A stretch of DNA of 64,000 nt, taken from the NCBI GenBank assembly GCA_965207445.1, contig CBDBLX010000002.1, positions 32,001 to 96,000 on the forward strand, read 5' to 3'. This stretch comes from Nitrosopumilus sp. (GTDB lineage Archaea; Thermoproteota; Nitrososphaeria; Nitrososphaerales; Nitrosopumilaceae). Numbering within the stretch: position 1 is the stretch's first letter; each line of letters starts with the position of its first letter. Both the position numbers and the translations under genes were made by a program. This document shows, piece after piece, positions 10,851 to 47,634 of this stretch. The notes under the pieces are model-generated. The model did not search any database. It had not been told where the DNA came from and saw nothing but the letters and a program-made list of their open reading frames with translations.

Positions 10851-11285
10851 GTTAGGGTTTTTGATAACTACCGTTAAAAATCTTAAGATTGACCAGCAAT
10901 CTTGTAACTGTTTTACGGCATGAGTAATAAAGCAACTAAAAAATCACAATGACGCGTGACTTTAATCTGTGTTAGAATTTGTGAGTGTCATCATATCAAA
11001 CATAATTCCTCTCAAATGGTATTGTAAGCTCAAAAAAAAAGAATCAAAATTGATCTCAATTATACAAAACACACAAGTGTAAAAACACACCAAATAGTTG
11101 GACATAAAATTAGAGTAAAAAATACAATCTAAAAAATATTATATGTCTACATTTAATATATATTTAATATACATTTAATATATATTCAACACACATGCAC
11201 AATACTCATAATCATTTCTCACTAAACCAAACATCAACAAACTTTACCAGTAACCGTTCAACCCCCCCCCCCCCCCCCCCCCCCC

Positions 11286-12310
11286 ACCTCACACTGTAAC
11301 ACTACACAAAACTGCCCAGTACAATTGTCTTGATTGTGGTGCAAAATTTCAAGCTAAAAATAACCTTCCACCAAACGGTCAGTTCGATTACTCTGTAATT
11401 CGCTATGTAACATATCAATCCATGCACAGAAAGACTCCTAAAATGGTTTCAGAAGATTTAAAGAATCTGTTCAAACTAGATGTTTCTGATACGACAATTC
11501 GTAATATATACGACCGTCAAACTGCAATGCTAAAACCCATAAGAGATGGTTTCATGGCAGAATTAGAAAAATCACAATCAGTAATCATGGATGAGACCGA
11601 ATACAAAGGTGAGCCCAAAAGATGGATAATGGCAGTTAGAAACGATGACACCGTAGCGTACCTGCACTCTCAGAATCGTAGTGCAACAGATCTCATAGCA
11701 CAGGCCGAAAACTGTATTGGTGCAATAAGTCGAGATGGATATCGCGGATATGATACTGTATTTCCAAATCACATAAAACAGCGCTGCACACAACACATTG
11801 TGCGGGAGAGTGGAACCATTTCAAATCGTAGTGAACTTGAATCTGCTACCAATTTGTATAATGAGTTGAACAAAAAATTTATCGCGTTGCGCAAATGGAC
11901 TCGTGGCAACTACTCTTTAAAGAGTAGGCGTTCATATGTTACAAAACTTCAAAAATGGTTGTGTGGTATAATATCTAGATACAAAAAAAAGCAGGTATGA
12001 AATAATGAAAAAGTTTGGCACCACACTAGAAAACACAGCGCCCGAACTGTTTACATTTGTTTTGTATCCAATTATACCACAAATCTTGGAGAACAGTCAA
12101 TGAAACCTGTAATAGGTCAGAGGAACAGTCGTCTGCAGTTGAAGAGTGACAAGGGGCAGAAAATCTCTGTGTAATATTTAGTTGTGTTGAGACGTGGAAG
12201 ATGCGTGGACTAAATGTTTAGTAGTTGTGTAAAACTATTGGTCCATCGTCTGATGATATATCTTAAAAATATATGATCTTGTTATTATGCCAAAATAGGT
12301 TGGTTCATAC
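11286..12310 (+). pseudogene. IS66-family transposase remnant with right end
   Basis: CLDC zinc site, MDETEY, RDGYRGY, QRCTQH; continues out of frame (APELFTFVLYP); ends TTGGTTCATAC like the 148-bp MITE TIR. Confidence 0.8.
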
Positions 12311-12783
12311 CACAAAATCCATGGGCGACACACCACCTGCTTCCATGTCTGTGGCAGGCAAATGGGTGGAGTCGGCCCGACGGTTGTTGTGTAGAGGTGC
12401 TTCCATGTTTCTCTGGTTACGCATGTCTACGCAGTGCGTCCCGAAGTTCGCGTGCTGTCAAGTTGGTGTGTGATGGTGTATCCGTAAGTACATACGAACT
12501 TGACGCTCCCTCCCACCAACCAACTCTGTTTCCTAATTGTACCTGTAGATACACCATTTGTCATCCGACAGAGACTCGGCAGGCGTCATGAGGCGAGTTA
12601 GAAAACAAAGATTCCCTACCAAATAGTTTACAAAGAGTAGATGCGGTAGAAAAATTTCACTATCCTGCAAGAATGGTAATCGGTAGGAACAACACTGTTA
12701 TCGACAGTTAATGCAAGGATCTTCAAAAGACACTCCGGATTTGGAAAGACCTCCTTATATAACGCAGGATGCGAGGATATACA

Positions 12784-13590
12784 ATGACTGCAAAACGTAC
12801 AAAAACGGCTTTGATTCTATGCATGCTTGCAACATTTGCTATGGCTTCGGTGCAATATACGGCTGCAATTAGCAGTGACACGCCGCAACACGTTGATGAT
12901 TCCCGGATGGTTACTTTTCTTGACAATGTGATTGACAAAACCGGAACAACCATAACCGAACACACGCTTGATGACTCGTCTGTTGTTACTGTTACAAATA
13001 CCGTAACGCCTACAGGGAGTAACACGTACATAGTACAGTCGATAGCTGCTTATCGTGGTGTCACTATTAACAACGAAACCATTACAGTTACGAAGAATGC
13101 CGACAACACGATCCATATGATCAACGAAAAGCACGGATTTAATGTCGTGTTTGGCCGTGGGGACAGTAGTGGTTTTAATGAGCATGGACAGATACAGGTA
13201 CGCAACTCGAAAACCATTCACCCCCTAGGTAGTGGAAGTTCGGACATATCAGGCGCCAAAGTGGATCTGTATGATAGTGGCTACAAGGCAACGTGGGAGG
13301 AACTACTGCGCTTGGAAGACCGTTATGAACAGTGTAATCTTAGAGATTACGAGACTTCCGCAGTTGTATTAGGCAACGACTATTGGACAACTGTCCACTG
13401 GAACTTTGATCAGTTCTATTTCCATTGGTGCATACTAGGACACTCTGTAGACAACGGTGAAATATCGTTCCAAGGAAACACGTATGAGTGGTCTGGAAGC
13501 AGTAACCGAGCAGACTATCGCGACTTCTCGCACGGGTCAAACACGGGTTCGTTCAGAGTAGAGGCTGACGCATGGTATGGAAGCTGGTAA
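12784..13590 (+). CDS. Predicted secreted protein of unknown function
   Basis: Signal-peptide-like MTAKRTKTALILCMLATFAMASVQYTAA; TATA-like TTATATAA upstream; Trp/Tyr-rich C-terminus with two Cys. Confidence 0.7.
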   Translation: MTAKRTKTALILCMLATFAMASVQYTAAISSDTPQHVDDSRMVTFLDNVIDKTGTTITEHTLDDSSVVTVTNTVTPTGSNTYIVQSIAAYRGVTINNETITVTKNADNTIHMINEKHGFNVVFGRGDSSGFNEHGQIQVRNSKTIHPLGSGSSDISGAKVDLYDSGYKATWEELLRLEDRYEQCNLRDYETSAVVLGNDYWTTVHWNFDQFYFHWCILGHSVDNGEISFQGNTYEWSGSSNRADYRDFSHGSNTGSFRVEADAWYGSW

Positions 13591-13900
13591 GTTCCATCTA
13601 CTCCCTTTATTTTCTTGGAAGTTCTTTGCACATTGTGCGGTTTTCATCACTAGTATTGGCTGGTCGTTCTATCTAGTTCAAATGGCATTTTTGGCGGTCA
13701 GTGGATCATTCTTTGATCTGGAATATTATCTTACATCCCGTCTTGGCCATGTAGATTTTATATTAATCTACGCGACAATAACATTTCTCGTAATATTCGG
13801 ATTGTTCAAAAAGAACATGCTAAAAAAAAATATGTCTTTTATTTTGATTTGTGTGGCTGTGGTTCTTAATCTCGTCTTAAGGTTGACTGTTATGGCATGA
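13577..13900 (+). CDS. Small membrane protein, about three TM segments
   Basis: 107 aa, hydrophobic, overlaps upstream stop by 14 nt. Confidence 0.55.
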   Translation: MEAGKFHLLPLFSWKFFAHCAVFITSIGWSFYLVQMAFLAVSGSFFDLEYYLTSRLGHVDFILIYATITFLVIFGLFKKNMLKKNMSFILICVAVVLNLVLRLTVMA

Positions 13901-14604
13901 ATTCGGCCTTTAGTACCCTGTGGGGGTAACAAGGTGGTTTCCTTATGCTGTTCAGCGCTCTCAAGAGGTGATCATGATGTCGTTGCGGACATCTCTCTGT
14001 CCGATGCCTCCAATCTCCTAGATTTTGTAGTTAGCGTCCGTGTACCAGTTTATACAGGGACTAAAGTCTGCATGATCTGCCTACTTGTTCGCACGTCTAC
14101 GGGTCACGCAGACTTTACAGTCCATCCTGTAATGATTGACATAGGTTCACGCCAATTGCCACTTCTCAGTCGTTTGGATGTTGGTCTTCTGTTGCTGACT
14201 AACGTACCTAGCGCCTCAATCCACTTCTCGCAGAGTTCGAATTGAGACCAACTCGAACCCATCTGGCAGGATTAAATCTTACTTTGCCCCGAACCTGCAT
14301 GTTGACAGGCACGAATCCGGATGGCAAAATTCGAGCTGAAACCGATTCGAAAAACGTGATAGCGGGCCTAAAGGTGTTTGGACCCCAATTGGGGTGCGAA
14401 TACCCAACACATGACGGCAGAAAGCGAACCGGGACGCTTACAGTATACATACCCCTTTTTCATTTGTGTATGTATTTGATCTGATTGAGTTTAAGCATTT
14501 ATCAAGGGCGTGTGATACACTGTACATTGCAGTGCGCAAACCAACTTCTACATATGATTGCGTCTTTGTGAGATGTTCTGCGTCTCCGGGCTGGATTTAG
14601 AAGC

Positions 14605-14685
14605 GTAACCGTTCAACCCCTTCCCAAATTTTGGCACAAATTCACCGCCTAACGTCTGGCGCAGGTACAGGGGTGGAACGGTTAC
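14605..14685. mobile_element. 81-bp IS66-type MITE
   Basis: TIR GTAACCGTTC; near-identical to copies at 23893, 23966 and 29905. Confidence 0.9.
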
Positions 14686-15530
14686 ACTTTACCATACTCA
14701 AAGGTTTGTATACCAGACGTTAAAATTTTATATGAAAATATAGCATCAGCATCCTTTTTAGAATTAATATTATGATCATGATATGTAGTAACGGTTTTCT
14801 GTTGATTAAAATAATTATCATATATGGCACACGATACATACCCATACAGTTGTTTTTTTTGTGCAACAGTATCTTTTTCACTTATCAAATGTATCTTTAT
14901 GTGTGAAAAGAGATCAACTTCTGCGGCCATATTCTCGACCTCTTTGTCATCAAAGACACGTACCATATTACTAGTCATTACAGTCACACCATAATGTACT
15001 GCAAGTCTTGCCAAATTGCGCATATATCTGAAGAATTTTTGACTCTTTTCTCGCAAATCTCCATACCGGCTGTATTCGTATGAAAACAAATCAGTCAAGC
15101 TATCAATCACTACCAGATCAAAAGGACAATTACCATAAAGTAATTTTTCTATCAATCTCATCTGCTCTGATACACTCTGCACTCTGGCAACTGATATTGC
15201 ATCAAGTATGTCAGTTATGCTATTGACATGTTGCTGTTCAGATATCTTGTCATTTTGGCCGTTATTTTGGGTGAGACTTGTTGCCATCTCCATTATCCTC
15301 TCTGGCCTAAACGTACCTGCAGTATCCACATACAACACACGTCTGCGCTCACCATATATGGCAAACCTACAAGCAGCCTGCAGTAACATCTGAGTCTTAC
15401 CAGTACCGTGTCTGCCAAACACATCTACAATAACACCAGACGGAATCCCACCTCCAAACATATCATCCAAAATACCCACACCAACTGCAACAACACGTCT
15501 ACTAGTTGATCTATCTGTCAATTCGATCAC
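14682..15530 (-). CDS. RadA/Rad51 paralog (RecA-superfamily ATPase)
   Basis: Walker A GRHGTGKT, YVDTAGTFRPERI, Walker B VVIDS. Confidence 0.85.
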   Translation of the reverse strand: MIELTDRSTSRRVVAVGVGILDDMFGGGIPSGVIVDVFGRHGTGKTQMLLQAACRFAIYGERRRVLYVDTAGTFRPERIMEMATSLTQNNGQNDKISEQQHVNSITDILDAISVARVQSVSEQMRLIEKLLYGNCPFDLVVIDSLTDLFSYEYSRYGDLREKSQKFFRYMRNLARLAVHYGVTVMTSNMVRVFDDKEVENMAAEVDLFSHIKIHLISEKDTVAQKKQLYGYVSCAIYDNYFNQQKTVTTYHDHNINSKKDADAIFSYKILTSGIQTFEYGKV

Positions 15531-23892: not shown

Positions 23893-24064
23893 GTAACCGT
23901 CCAACCCCCGTAACCTGCGCCAGACGTTAGGCGGTGAATTTGTGCCTAAATTTGGGAAGGGGTTGGTAACCGTTCAACCTCCGTACTTGCGCCAGACGTT
24001 AGTCGGTGAATTTGTGCCTAAATTTGGGAGGGAGTTGAACGGTTACAAGGGGTTGAACGGTTAC
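23893..24064. mobile_element. 81-bp MITE with a second 81-bp MITE (23966-24046) nested in its right TIR
   Basis: 9-bp TSD AAGGGGTTG at 23957-23965 and 24047-24055. Confidence 0.92.
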
Positions 24065-29904: not shown

Positions 29905-29985
29905 GTAACCGTTCAACCTCTTCCCAAATTTAGGCACAGACTCACCGCCTAACATCTGGTGCAGGCACGGGGGTTGAATGGTTAC
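29905..29985. mobile_element. 81-bp IS66-type MITE upstream of the cas operon
   Basis: 9-bp TSD CGCCTTTTC at 29896-29904 and 29986-29994. Confidence 0.93.
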
Positions 29986-42500: not shown

Positions 42501-43086
42501 AATATGTGCACACAATTGTAACCTTCAATGGGGCCGCAACTTTTGTGTTGCGGAAATTCATCACATGAGGGTTCAGTCTCATCGAGGTGGCCGTTCCTTC
42601 AATGGGGCCGCAACTTTTGTGTTGCGGAAATTTGCGGAATTATCCACAGTGTTATTAAATTTGTCACCTTCAATGGGGGTAACAGTTCAACCCCTATTTT
42701 GTAAGTAGTCATGCAGATACAGCAATAGCGATCACCGATCATTACTGTGATCGAATTTACGTAAATCTAAATGATAAACACGACGATATGTGAGAAAGTG
42801 CTCAAAATGTTGAAAACACGTTTGATTATTTTTTGCATCTAGGCAGGAAATTACTCAACTAATTGACCTGTGGTCAGCTTTTGACATTGCGGCCTGTTAA
42901 ATACATATTTTTCTACTTATCATTGTACTCGAAAATGATAAGTAGAAAATCTATTGATATTGTATTGCAAAAACAGTATTTAGACTATTTTAACCACAAT
43001 AATGAAAATTTACATAATTGTGTACATGGTGTACGCAAACACAGTTGTGCGGTGGGTAGCAAAATCATCAGAGGTGGTGTGTTGCA

Positions 43087-43356
43087 ATGATCTCAGAGAT
43101 GGCCACACTGCGCAAAGAAATTCATACATTGCACTCACAGTTGGATTCTGCAAATGATACGATACGCAACAATTCTGCTGAATTAGAGAAGAGTCATCTA
43201 GAGACGGCTACTGCGCGAGCAGAGATTGCGGTATTAGAAGAGAAATACTCCAAAATGTCTGCCAAAAACAAGCAGCTTGAGGATACAATAAAGCAACAGC
43301 AACAGCCACAATTGCAGTCAGGAATGCATAGTTTTGAGAGAGTCAGGAATGCATAG
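43087..43356 (+). CDS. IS66 transposase N-terminal coiled-coil segment, out of frame with the catalytic part
   Basis: Heptad-like sequence; ends within a 25-bp tandem duplication. Confidence 0.6.
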   Translation: MISEMATLRKEIHTLHSQLDSANDTIRNNSAELEKSHLETATARAEIAVLEEKYSKMSAKNKQLEDTIKQQQQPQLQSGMHSFERVRNA

Positions 43357-43358
43357 TT

Positions 43359-44756
43359 TTGAGAGAAGAGGTTGCACAACTAAAACAACAACTCCAACAA
43401 AAAACCAGACAACACCACCGTGTTGATAATGCCCACACACCTCCCTCTGCAGGAAGTGACTCACAAAATAAACTCAAAAATTACAGACGCGAACATGAAG
43501 AACGCTGTTACTTGGAATATGGAATAGTTATGGAAGCCATTACTAATTCTGACAATTATGTACTCGAAAATGCAATTGCACATGAAACCAACGACAAAGC
43601 GGTTAGAAAAGGAGTCAGTCTAATCCTGTATGGGTTAGAAGAGAAGACAAAAGGAAAAAAATGGAATGAAGAGGAGGAGGAGAAAACAACAATATACAAC
43701 ATGGGCGTCACAGAGGAAATTGACTGTACAGTAGACAAATGCCCCGAATGTGGTGCAGATGTAGATGTTAAACACGAATGCAAGATGGTAATAGACACTC
43801 CAGTAATAGTCAAAGCCACAAAAAAACGGATTAAATCATCAAAAGGCAAATGCAAAAACAACCACAAAATAAACACCATGCCCAAAGGATATACCAAAGG
43901 CTCAATGTTTGGCCCCAATCTCATGACCATGATCGTATTCATGTTCTTTACAACACTCAGTCTAAACTCCATATCACACATGCTAACGCTAGTCGGCGTT
44001 CCAAAGGTCTCAAAGGTGACCATAATGAATGCTCTTACAGCAGTAGCAAGAGAAAAGTTTGCAGCAACTGCAAAACAGATCTCAAAAAATCTTGCAAAAA
44101 CAAGATATTTGATGGGTGATGAAACGCCAGTCAAAATAGGCATAAAACGTGGCTATGCGTGGGTCTTCATAGGCGAATATGGCATCAGTTTTGTCATTAC
44201 TCGCTCACGTGGTGCGGCTGTATTAGATATACACTGTCCGTTATTTGACATTCCAATCGTGGTGGATGGATACGCCGCATACAACAAATTCAAAACCAAA
44301 CAGCGCTGCTGGGCGCATGTTTTGCGCGATGCCGAACTGCTGGCAGCCATGCAAGGCGGCAATCTCGTAGAATTACACCAAAAACTCCAGCACATATTTC
44401 ACGAGGCCAAACAGCTACCCCCAGACACCACAGATCAACAACTGCAAGACAACTGGATAGATCCCGTCATGGCAATTGCAGGCACATATACAGAACTAGG
44501 ATATTCGTTTGGTGGCAAACTGCTCAATGCGGCGCCAGACCTGTTTACATTTGTCAAATATCCGGGCATGCCACCTACCAACAACAAATCCGAACGAACA
44601 CTGCGGCGCGTCGTAATTCACAAAAAGATTCGTCAGATGTTTCGCAGTACAACAGGAATGGAAGTTTATGGTATATTGATGTCATGTATGATGACGTGGT
44701 ATGATCAGGACAAGGATCTTGTAAAGAACATCCATAACACCATCATGGCAAGCTAA
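43359..44756 (+). CDS. IS66-family DDE transposase (main part)
   Basis: NAHTPPS, CPECG, GDETP, VDGYAAY, QRCWAH, PTNNKSER. Confidence 0.92.
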   Translation: MREEVAQLKQQLQQKTRQHHRVDNAHTPPSAGSDSQNKLKNYRREHEERCYLEYGIVMEAITNSDNYVLENAIAHETNDKAVRKGVSLILYGLEEKTKGKKWNEEEEEKTTIYNMGVTEEIDCTVDKCPECGADVDVKHECKMVIDTPVIVKATKKRIKSSKGKCKNNHKINTMPKGYTKGSMFGPNLMTMIVFMFFTTLSLNSISHMLTLVGVPKVSKVTIMNALTAVAREKFAATAKQISKNLAKTRYLMGDETPVKIGIKRGYAWVFIGEYGISFVITRSRGAAVLDIHCPLFDIPIVVDGYAAYNKFKTKQRCWAHVLRDAELLAAMQGGNLVELHQKLQHIFHEAKQLPPDTTDQQLQDNWIDPVMAIAGTYTELGYSFGGKLLNAAPDLFTFVKYPGMPPTNNKSERTLRRVVIHKKIRQMFRSTTGMEVYGILMSCMMTWYDQDKDLVKNIHNTIMAS

Positions 44757-47634
44757 ATCATTCACCAAACTTCATCGCATAGCAGTAGATGTGTGTTGAG
44801 GTGTACAGGTAGGGGGTTTAACTGTTACTCAATGGGGCCGCAACTTTTGTGTTGCGGAAATTGGCATAATGACGATCCGAACAGACACACAAAAACACCT
44901 TCAATGGGGCCGCAACTTTTGTGTTGCGGAAATTTACTAGCGGTGACATATACATGAGACGTTTTGACATCCTTCAATGGGGCCGCAACTTTTGTGTTGC
45001 GGAAATTTACACACCCAGACACAACCAAGCAAAATCTTAGGACCTTCAATGGGGCCGCAACTTTTGTGTTGCGGAAATTCAGAAGTGATTTTAAATCATA
45101 AGTTATTTCCATATAACCTTCAATGGGGCCGCAACTTTTGTGTTGCGGAAATCATGCCATAAAAAAAGCAATCCCACCAGCCGACCTAATCCTTCAATGG
45201 GGCCGCAACTTTTGTGTTGCGGAAATAGCACCCGAGATACACGTGGCTAGAATGGTAAGGGATGCCTTCAATGGGGCCGCAACTTTTGTGTTGCGGAAAT
45301 TCAATACAGTACGATTACAAGGAAGCCACGTACCACCCTTCAATGGGGCCGCAACTTTTGTGTTGCGGAAATTTAGCGCCACGTATGTTCACAAAACAAG
45401 AGAAAGATGCCTTCAATGGGGCCGCAACTTTTGTGTTGCGGAAATATGGGAAGCACTACTTTGTATAGAGATAATAACGATCCTTCAATGGGGCCGCAAC
45501 TTTTGTGTTGCGGAAATCAAAAAAGATGGGACTCTGCACAGGAGTTGCAATGCAACCTTCAATGGGGCCGCAACTTTTGTGTTGCGGAAATCGCACTAAC
45601 ACCAGTCTTTGCACGTTTGCCAAAAATCCTTCAATGGGGCCGCAACTTTTGTGTTGCGGAAATTATGACGCCCTCACGTGGGTACACGTACGGTTGTTCC
45701 CTTCAATGGGGCCGCAACTTTTGTGTTGCGGAAATAGGTCGGGCGTGGATATACCTTGTCCGTATTCTAAACCTTCAATGGGGCCGCAACTTTTGTGTTG
45801 CGGAAATCTAAGTCTTCATTTGCATGACTGCCTGCCATTTCCATCCTTCAATGGGGCCGCAACTTTTGTGTTGCGGAAATAGAACTGATACTGGTACAGG
45901 CAGAACTTATACTCAAACCTTCAATGGGGCCGCAACTTTTGTGTTGCGGAAATTATTACCACTCAACATGAAGCATTTGCTCAACAAGGACCTTCAATGG
46001 GGCCGCAACTTTTGTGTTGCGGAAATTTCAAGGACGCGACCCCGAACCAAACGCACCTAGTGACCTTCAATGGGGCCGCAACTTTTGTGTTGCGGAAATT
46101 AAAGATAAACGAAAAATATCAGCTTTAATCTCAACCTTCAATGGGGCCGCAACTTTTGTGTTGCGGAAATAGCAATATGACGCAATGGACAGACCCCCAG
46201 AATATAGCCTTCAATGGGGCCGCAACTTTTGTGTTGCGGAAATTCGTATATCTACTGCTGTAGAAACCACAAAGCCCGCACCTTCAATGGGGCCGCAACT
46301 TTTGTGTTGCGGAAATTTATAATCCAGTTTTTGATCGTCGGGGGGGACTTGCACCTTCAATGGGGCCGCAACTTTTGTGTTGCGGAAATTGATCACCTAC
46401 TGCGCCGCGTAGATGCACTATGCCAACCTTCAATGGGGCCGCAACTTTTGTGTTGCGGAAATACCCACTTGGTGGCCGCCCCATAGAATACCGCGAGTAT
46501 CCTTCAATGGGGCCGCAACTTTTGTGTTGCGGAAATTAGTATATGTGGTTGTGGTCCATGTGCCTGAGATATATCCTTCAATGGGGCCGCAACTTTTGTG
46601 TTGCGGAAATCATTGGCAGTTGGAGCAGTTGGGTGGCTATTGAGACTAGCCTTCAATGGGGCCGCAACTTTTGTGTTGCGGAAATGTGTAAATTCAAAAG
46701 GTAGACGTTGCATACCACTTGGCCTTCAATGGGGCCGCAACTTTTGTGTTGCGGAAATCTACTATCAATTTACCACTATAACATACATCACACAACCTTC
46801 AATGGGGCCGCAACTTTTGTGTTGCGGAAATTCCATTCGAATCAATATAATCACATGCTTCATAAGATCCTTCAATGGGGCCGCAACTTTTGTGTTGCGG
46901 AAATTGTATGCTCTACGTGCAAATTCATCATCAATGTCAATCCTTCAATGGGGCCGCAACTTTTGTGTTGCGGAAATATTAATATCTATCAATAACAACG
47001 CAACCCCTTGTTTCCTTCAATGGGGCCGCAACTTTTGTGTTGCGGAAATCAAATGGAAATGATCAGAACGAAGTTCAAAGACGCATTCCTTCAATGGGGC
47101 CGCAACTTTTGTGTTGCGGAAATTTAGTGCGCCATATACACATACATTCTCATTACAGAATCCTTCAATGGGGCCGCAACTTTTGTGTTGCGGAAATTAA
47201 CAATACAATTAGTATATACGTTGATGGAATATATCCCTTCAATGGGGCCGCAACTTTTGTGTTGCGGAAATGACACCCAGACATATGGACAATCCAATAA
47301 CCATAGCTCCTTCAATGGGGCCGCAACTTTTGTGTTGCGGAAATCCAATGTGCGGATCGGGTACTGTATGCAAAATGGCGCCTTCAATGGGGCCGCAACT
47401 TTTGTGTTGCGGAAATTGTTTTCAGTAAAATCGATTTGATGTAATATATCTGTCCTTCAATGGGGCCGCAACTTTTGTGTTGCGGAAATTCACTAAGATC
47501 AATAGGTTTCCAATTACGTGAATTATCCTTCAATGGGGCCGCAACTTTTGTGTTGCGGAAATAGTATGCTTTGAGCGCGTTGTATATCTCCACAAACCCC
47601 TTCAATGGGGCCGCAACTTTTGTGTTGCGGAAAT

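Follow-up and report, generated by a model that had tools for sequence, protein, structure and literature searches.

Here we analyse a 3.4-kb block (positions 11241–14694) in a 64,000-nucleotide window of the chromosome of the ammonia-oxidising archaeon Nitrosopumilus sp. (contig CBDBLX010000002.1, positions 32,001–96,000), where it is flanked by two 9-bp target copies at the end of a radA paralogue. The block is a real insertion, whose left end was wrongly typed in a preliminary description and in which an IS66 remnant and a tRNA-island junction had been overlooked. The reading that we favour, at a probability of roughly one half, is a single composite transposition that used as its outer ends the right end of a dead insertion sequence (IS) of IS66 family C and a MITE (miniature inverted-repeat transposable element), and that was followed by decay through deletion. 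Throughout, C2 denotes the contig from which the window is taken, and C1 a second haplotype contig, of 121 kb, of the start of C2.

The terminal sequence GTAACCGTTC is found at 11250 (+), 14605 (+) and 14676–14685 (–), such that transposon ends stand at both outer boundaries, 11250 (+) and 14685 (–), and point inward. Outside these outer ends lies an exact 9-bp repeat, ACTTTACCA, at 11241–11249 on the left (with an identical flank in C1) and at 14686–14694 on the right, within the last codons of the radA paralogue, while the flanks of the 81-bp MITE at 14605–14685, taken on its own, are unrelated. Among 450 non-MITE end pairs up to 40 kb apart on C2, 0.0025 exact 9-bp matches were expected by chance and six were seen, namely this block, C2:768012–768972 and four full IS copies. 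The coordinates and flanking repeat given in the preliminary description are thus confirmed, as are the three other insertions in the window that it credited with a duplication of the same length: a nested MITE at 23966–24046, a MITE at 29905–29985 and an IS at 42679–44828. The nested copy sits inside another MITE (23893–24064).

The target gene encodes a RadA paralogue with a Rad51 domain (14682–15530, – strand). Comparison of reading frames bears out the earlier statement that its tail reads EYGKVC-stop without the block and EYGKV-stop with it: the block costs the protein one C-terminal residue, and the terminal repeat provides the stop. At 11 loci in relatives, a gene for an Lhr helicase follows the radA paralogue directly in eight cases and after 1.2 kb in one, the other two being uninformative on this order; the cargo is absent at this locus from all 11, in agreement with the preliminary description. 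Distant relatives keep the gene order without the cargo, and both haplotypes of this genome are filled. C1 and C2 have identical block junctions and differ in sequence by 0.6–2.7% (1.1–1.3% in the block flanks, 0.6% in the cargo), and the C1 block holds an additional, nested 1,671-bp IS within its IS66-B part. Since the junctions are the same in both haplotypes, the block is genuine and predates the divergence of the two. Over its length C1 is 98–99% identical to the start of C2, with at least 12 insertion differences, and it probably raises the contamination figure of the genome. A search of sequencing runs found 68–87% of the words in four runs of one sample and 9% in one other run; no RNA run containing the words was listed in it.

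Members of the IS66 family have terminal inverted repeats and generate duplications of 8–9 bp. Three families in this genome, here called A, B and C, belong to it and are of the single-open reading frame (ORF), ISBst12-like type with terminal inverted repeats, ISBst12 being listed as an IS66 subgroup in the available part of PMC8024623. Families A and B carry a DDE_Tnp_IS66 transposase; family C was assigned by its translation and by DNA likeness to A (74% identity over 418 bp of the transposase gene). Family C is dead: its one full copy (C2:1189820–1191918) is decayed and has lost its target repeat, and no family-C open frame of at least 250 aa is present in the genome.

The left end of the block (11250–11291, +) has the form of a family-C right inverted repeat, consisting of a 14-bp terminal repeat, a run of C (24 in C2, 20 in C1) and then ACCTCA. 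The exact GTAACCGTTCAACC end is that of IS66 family C, and three family-C right ends have a C-rich stretch followed by ACCTCAGAC. Next to it lies the 3′ part of IS66 family B (11287–12310, +), a 1,024-bp remnant that has a right inverted repeat of its own (12298–12310), is 94–95% identical to C2:1265621 and C2:653752 and accounts for almost a third of the supposed cargo. Its transposase fragment (PF03050, E 7.6e-17; an NF033517 match was below cut-off) has a frameshift near 11990 and stops further on. The motif CCTCA occurs once in the 2,197 bp of IS66-B, exactly at the breakpoint, and for this reason the left end is, judged from its sequence, a family-C right end joined to IS66-B by a CCTCA microhomology deletion, and not a collapsed MITE. 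Of the claim that the block is built from miniature IS66 ends, it stands that both ends are of IS66 type and that the right one is a MITE; the left one is not miniature, and with a single MITE the block is no MITE-pair composite. Both full copies of IS66-B have 8-bp duplications, and the ends of this family differ from the outer ends of the block. An intact transposase of its own is absent between those outer ends, the only such gene there being the truncated, frameshifted one of IS66-B.

The remaining cargo (12311–14604) has a G+C content of 45%, compared with 38–40% in the flanks, and its tail holds a junction of the kind made by tRNA-targeting islands. This consists of a conserved arm P (14229–14360, +), an attachment core resembling a degenerate tRNA 3′ end (14361–14386, –) and a conserved arm Q (14411–14446, +), the last found in this genome at the far ends of tRNA-Arg and tRNA-Met islands. 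Among 30 loci in relatives, 12 full P arms were found; five lie immediately against an intact tRNA gene at its 3′ end, and a tRNA or a tRNA-3′-like core lies beside the arm in 11 of the 12. The P profile was built from eight such arms and the core pattern was picked afterwards; adjacency to tRNA is independent of both. Of the genome's 47 tRNA 3′ ends, compared with the core, that of tRNA-Lys(TTT) scored highest (one mismatch in 13), followed by tRNA-Arg(TCT). Elsewhere the two arms stand at opposite island ends; in the block they flank one core, and such an arm-core-arm order likely marks either an excised circle or a joint between tandem islands, the latter seen at C2:2377245. As the block neither contains nor adjoins a tRNA, the cargo DNA appears displaced from its island, and this, combined with its higher G+C and its absence from the locus in relatives, indicates that the cargo came from elsewhere. 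The block contains no tyrosine integrase (the genome has one PF00589 match, below cut-off), and no IS66-B or IS66-C remnant was found at the tRNA-Lys island. Arm Q also occurs away from any tRNA, mostly with a tRNA-like core (C2:898028, 1071371 and 1751726; L077, L078 and L084), and attachment arms are common to islands at tRNA genes for Val, Met, Ile, Lys and Arg, being present in 12 of 150 same-genus relatives.

How the ends behave elsewhere in the genome bears on how the block arose. Allowing up to two mismatches in 14 bases, we found 332 ends of this type in the genome as opposed to 4–5 in shuffled C2, and the 324 on C2 were tested all-against-all. MITE-sized end pairs number 107, and 22 of these have an exact 9-bp repeat; among the 105 complete MITEs on C2, the flanks are unrelated in 70, repeated with at most one mismatch in 28 and intermediate in seven. 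Age was rejected as the cause of the missing repeats, the mean distance to the family majority being 7.8 with and 7.7 without them (a comparison covering 63/66 copies of 81 bp). All five full IS66-A copies have 9-bp duplications, and that these keep their repeats while most MITEs do not suggests frequent end-anchored deletions or end swaps. IS66-A is intact and polymorphic between the haplotypes, with open frames of 557–562 aa in three copies on C2 and one on C1; the copy in the window (42679–44828, +) has a 5′ frameshift. Its ends differ from MITE ends at one or two of the first 14 bases, and the intact copies are candidate sources of transposase. The MITE of the block itself has three changes from the family majority and a hairpin of –35.7 kcal/mol (z –4.3); two sub-threshold Rfam matches to miRNA hairpins were rejected. 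IS66 is present in 60 of the 150 relatives, and this MITE in one. An inverted 9-bp match between C2:319586 and 885499 (one seen, 0.3 expected) restored no ORF and was not used.

Several other arrangements of these families were noted. IS66-B has an intact-looking copy at C2:652719–654915, in whose transposase a 21-bp unit (KKKDEEL) is expanded into a long tandem array, and pairs of family-B-type left ends with exact, A+T-rich 8-bp flank matches at C2:178385–181001, 413551–416440 and 2220820–2236555 may bound cargo blocks of 2.6, 2.9 and 15.7 kb. The first 119 bp of IS66-C run into a MITE at the same breakpoint at C2:581702–581905 and 1547164–1547359, without target repeats, which could represent a moved unit or a hotspot. 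Dozens of copies of another repeat, roughly 118 bp long and 95–100% identical, are present on C2, inserted in IS66-B, in IS66-C and elsewhere. An 8-kb cargo element in this genome has 114-bp inverted repeats (91%) that do not belong to the end family of the block.

In the composite transposition that we favour, the donor would have been either an island excised as a circle or an array of tandem islands, with IS66-C, IS66-B and the MITE inserted around the junction. An IS66 transposase, acting in cis if it came from the then still active family C or in trans if from its sister family A, would then have paired the outer ends, and the segment between them would have entered the last codons of the radA paralogue, creating the 9-bp repeat. 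Before or after this move, the CCTCA deletion very probably eliminated the IS66-C body along with the 5′ half of IS66-B; given that the left outer end comes from family C, the transposase may have worked in cis until that deletion. The length of the repeat is that of IS66-A duplications and of MITEs that keep theirs. A number of observations weigh against this reading. The outer repeat indicates an insertion event at the site, not that all 3.4 kb came together; no second insertion of the block with another repeat was found (it occupies a single locus), an empty allele exists in neither haplotype, and the inner MITE flank is not matched by the flank of any other end, as it would be at a donor scar. 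The unrelated flanks of 70 of the 105 MITEs imply that ends are often rearranged in this genome, the inner end of the block's MITE matches a family-C right end at 21 of its first 22 bases, as a crossover model requires, and action of IS66-A on these ends is a candidate only. Rearrangement is also visible between the haplotypes: C2:61077 (window 29077–49864) and C1:79587–79667 share a left flank and an 11-bp end that lead into different elements, a MITE in C1, where 20.8 kb is missing up to the right end of the MITE. A 9-bp near-match for the right flank of family B was set aside as A+T-rich and expected by chance.

These points lend themselves to another history, less probable in our view and still a serious possibility, in which the MITE alone made the repeat, which would then date the MITE alone, and a 3.36-kb circle, an excised island with one IS66-C right end, later entered at the left terminal repeat of the MITE by crossover or end-targeted insertion. 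The resulting order (repeat, end, cargo, end, MITE body, repeat) is the one observed, and a circle opened at the end explains it with one deletion only. Ends 11250 and 14605 form a direct repeat with 16 bp of identity, and an excised circle would carry its arm-core-arm junction in intact form, as seen here, although such junctions also form between tandem islands without a circle, as at C2:2377245. A stretch of 16–22 bp is short for homologous recombination, and our literature search found no such reaction for IS66, although IS30 does insert adjacent to inverted repeats, according to the available part of PMC9333248. The shared flank and end of the two haplotypes are what end exchange would leave, although that example is a loss, not a gain. 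We consider it unlikely that a plain IS66-C made the repeat and that an IS66-B-bounded segment with the cargo and the MITE then jumped into it, a left-hand deletion at CCTCA and a right-hand one from end to end leaving the present remnant. Nesting is common here (the extra IS in the C1 block, the MITE within a MITE in the window), family-B ends bound several blocks with 8-bp repeats, and C2:2043647–2044977 reads naturally as an IS66-C in which a MITE has taken the place of the right end; yet this course of events requires more unseen steps, including a second family-B end that is now traceless.

The preliminary description had seen in the block a MITE pair bracketing cargo and moved in trans, one of many such gene shuttles, which would require that the left MITE collapsed later. 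In principle, decay of an end such as the inner one (M1) could leave a terminal repeat and a C run, and C2:768012–768972, a MITE and a partial MITE with an exact 9-bp repeat, has a comparable layout. The position of the breakpoint at the single CCTCA of IS66-B is, however, accounted for by a family-C right end alone, and among the 324 ends on C2 no MITE pair has both intact cargo and a repeat. The search for further end-bounded cargo blocks returned only two other non-standard blocks that keep the 9-bp repeat, with mixed ends and holding just repeat fragments and part of IS66-C: the one just named and C2:2043647–2044977, which has one mismatch in its repeat. A general role of MITE pairs as gene shuttles is therefore not supported in this genome. 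The paired-MITE explanation of the block is largely refuted by the breakpoint, and we regard it as very improbable. Less credible again is an assembly artefact or a chance repeat: repeats abound in the genome and its assembly includes a second haplotype contig, yet both contigs share the junctions while differing in sequence and by a nested IS, chance predicts next to no such repeats, and the flanks rejoin a conserved gene order. Returning to the composite transposition, its outer repeat should not be taken as proof of a one-step event. More speculatively, and somewhat more doubtful than the docking of this one circle, the shared IS66 end of 11–22 bp may serve generally, in these IS-rich archaea that oxidise ammonia, as an exchange site at which the ends of different families swap and circles from tRNA islands dock into resident MITEs. 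If so, MITEs would be landing pads that rehome island genes without an integrase, the block would represent one such circle after docking, and the loss of target repeats in two thirds of MITEs would be explained.

What survives of the passenger appears, from its sequence, to be a self-contained promoter with a gene pair for a predicted secreted protein and a predicted membrane protein. A conserved leader (12640–12783, +) with a TATA-like box at 12755–12762 directly precedes the ATG at 12784 of an intact gene (12784–13590, +) for a 268-aa protein predicted to be exported (273 aa from an alternative ATG at 12769), with a hydrophobic N-terminus and two predicted beta-rich domains. Overlapping it is a gene for a 107-aa hydrophobic, predicted membrane protein (13577–13900, +). 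The leader has 14 other matches on C2 (e.g. 434243, 602842, 1074332, 1206225, 2379538 and 2403532), which precede genes for unrelated proteins that are predicted to be secreted, frequently with another gene immediately following, and an 82% match in the related genome G081; seven leader sites, and a paralogue at C2:2209064, lie upstream of ORFs with hydrophobic N-termini, several of them frameshifted. A bacterial promoter scan, of a type unsuited to archaea, gave matches at chance level. Between the haplotypes the 268-aa gene has four synonymous and two non-synonymous changes.

Homologues of the 268-aa protein occur in 12 of the 150 same-genus genomes, usually with a small hydrophobic ORF behind them; in five aligned cases it is directly downstream, at 15–26% identity, and the junction of the two genes has a 69% DNA match in genome G149. 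Other ORFs that often adjoin the homologues we take, by eye, to be transposases. The protein belongs to no Pfam or NCBIfam family, no locus for it was found in metagenome or genome collections, and it has no Atlas match. Its structure model (pLDDT 67.6) has no Foldseek match at E 0.001, and the best VIA match (Z 7.3) lies within background. A profile search returned 10 proteins, none named; one homologue (P0004) is joined to an N-terminal TPR region, through fusion or a gene-calling error. The layout of the two genes, as the sole hint, suggests a toxin-immunity role, which we do not claim.

Taken together, the block would offer a clean archaeal case in which non-autonomous IS66 ends carry genes of an integrase-dependent island to the neighbourhood of core genes, the target losing a single residue. 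The genome, with intact transposases, more than 100 MITEs and two haplotypes, is a test bed for the pairing and swapping of ends, and the tRNA-island attachment arms and the mobile secreted-protein gene pair may prove more useful than the block.

Among known systems, the translocatable units and pseudo-compound transposons of IS26 arise by a reaction that joins two whole IS26 copies. They resemble the docking scenario in that the outer repeat stems from an earlier simple insertion and the cargo arrives later from a circle, whereas docking here would act on the 16–22 bp ends of an IS66-type element. Our literature search found no paper on the mechanism of IS66 transposition, which is little studied, and no archaeal IS66/MITE composite, although it did not cover the main review of archaeal IS. 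Cryptic integrated elements at thaumarchaeal tRNA genes have short cores, tandem arrays and inserted IS (PMC6563490, in the part available); their attachment core has a median of 17 bp, compared with 14 to about 26 bp here, and of such an element the block retains only the junction and one gene pair, with no tRNA and no integrase. The portion of that paper available to us contains no description of two conserved arms, and its main text has neither ‘IS66’ nor ‘MITE’, 13 IS families being treated outside that text in its Fig. 7 and Table S1.

The transporter IS66 (tIS66) elements (e.g. ISPa75-fosZ) are IS66 members that carry passengers (PMC12888890, accessible in part). As described there, their ends start with GTAA and the passenger is caught between ends of different IS66 members, as in the block; they keep TnpA, TnpB and an intact DDE transposase and occupy many target sites, whereas the block is present at one site and contains just a single-ORF transposase, broken and from a third family. 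In bacteria, composites bounded by MITEs transpose with a transposase supplied in trans, judging from the accessible portions of the reports (PMC3575428; PMC13367494; such composites also in PMC10969869). They include the IMU-integron-IMU and MITE-integron-MITE structures, transposition having been shown for IMU (PMC3575428), and the Tn3-related TIME-COMPs (PMC13367494). The block shares with IMU and TIME-COMP elements a passenger between non-autonomous ends, a duplication outside them, a host gene that was hit and a transposase that today must come from elsewhere. It differs in that both ends of those elements are copies of one MITE, whereas here a right end of IS66-C is combined with an IS66-type MITE, and in that the mobility of IMU has been demonstrated, while the block is known from its sequence in an archaeal host. 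MITE-bounded composites are thus already known in bacteria; what is new here is the mixed pair of IS66-C and MITE ends in an archaeon.

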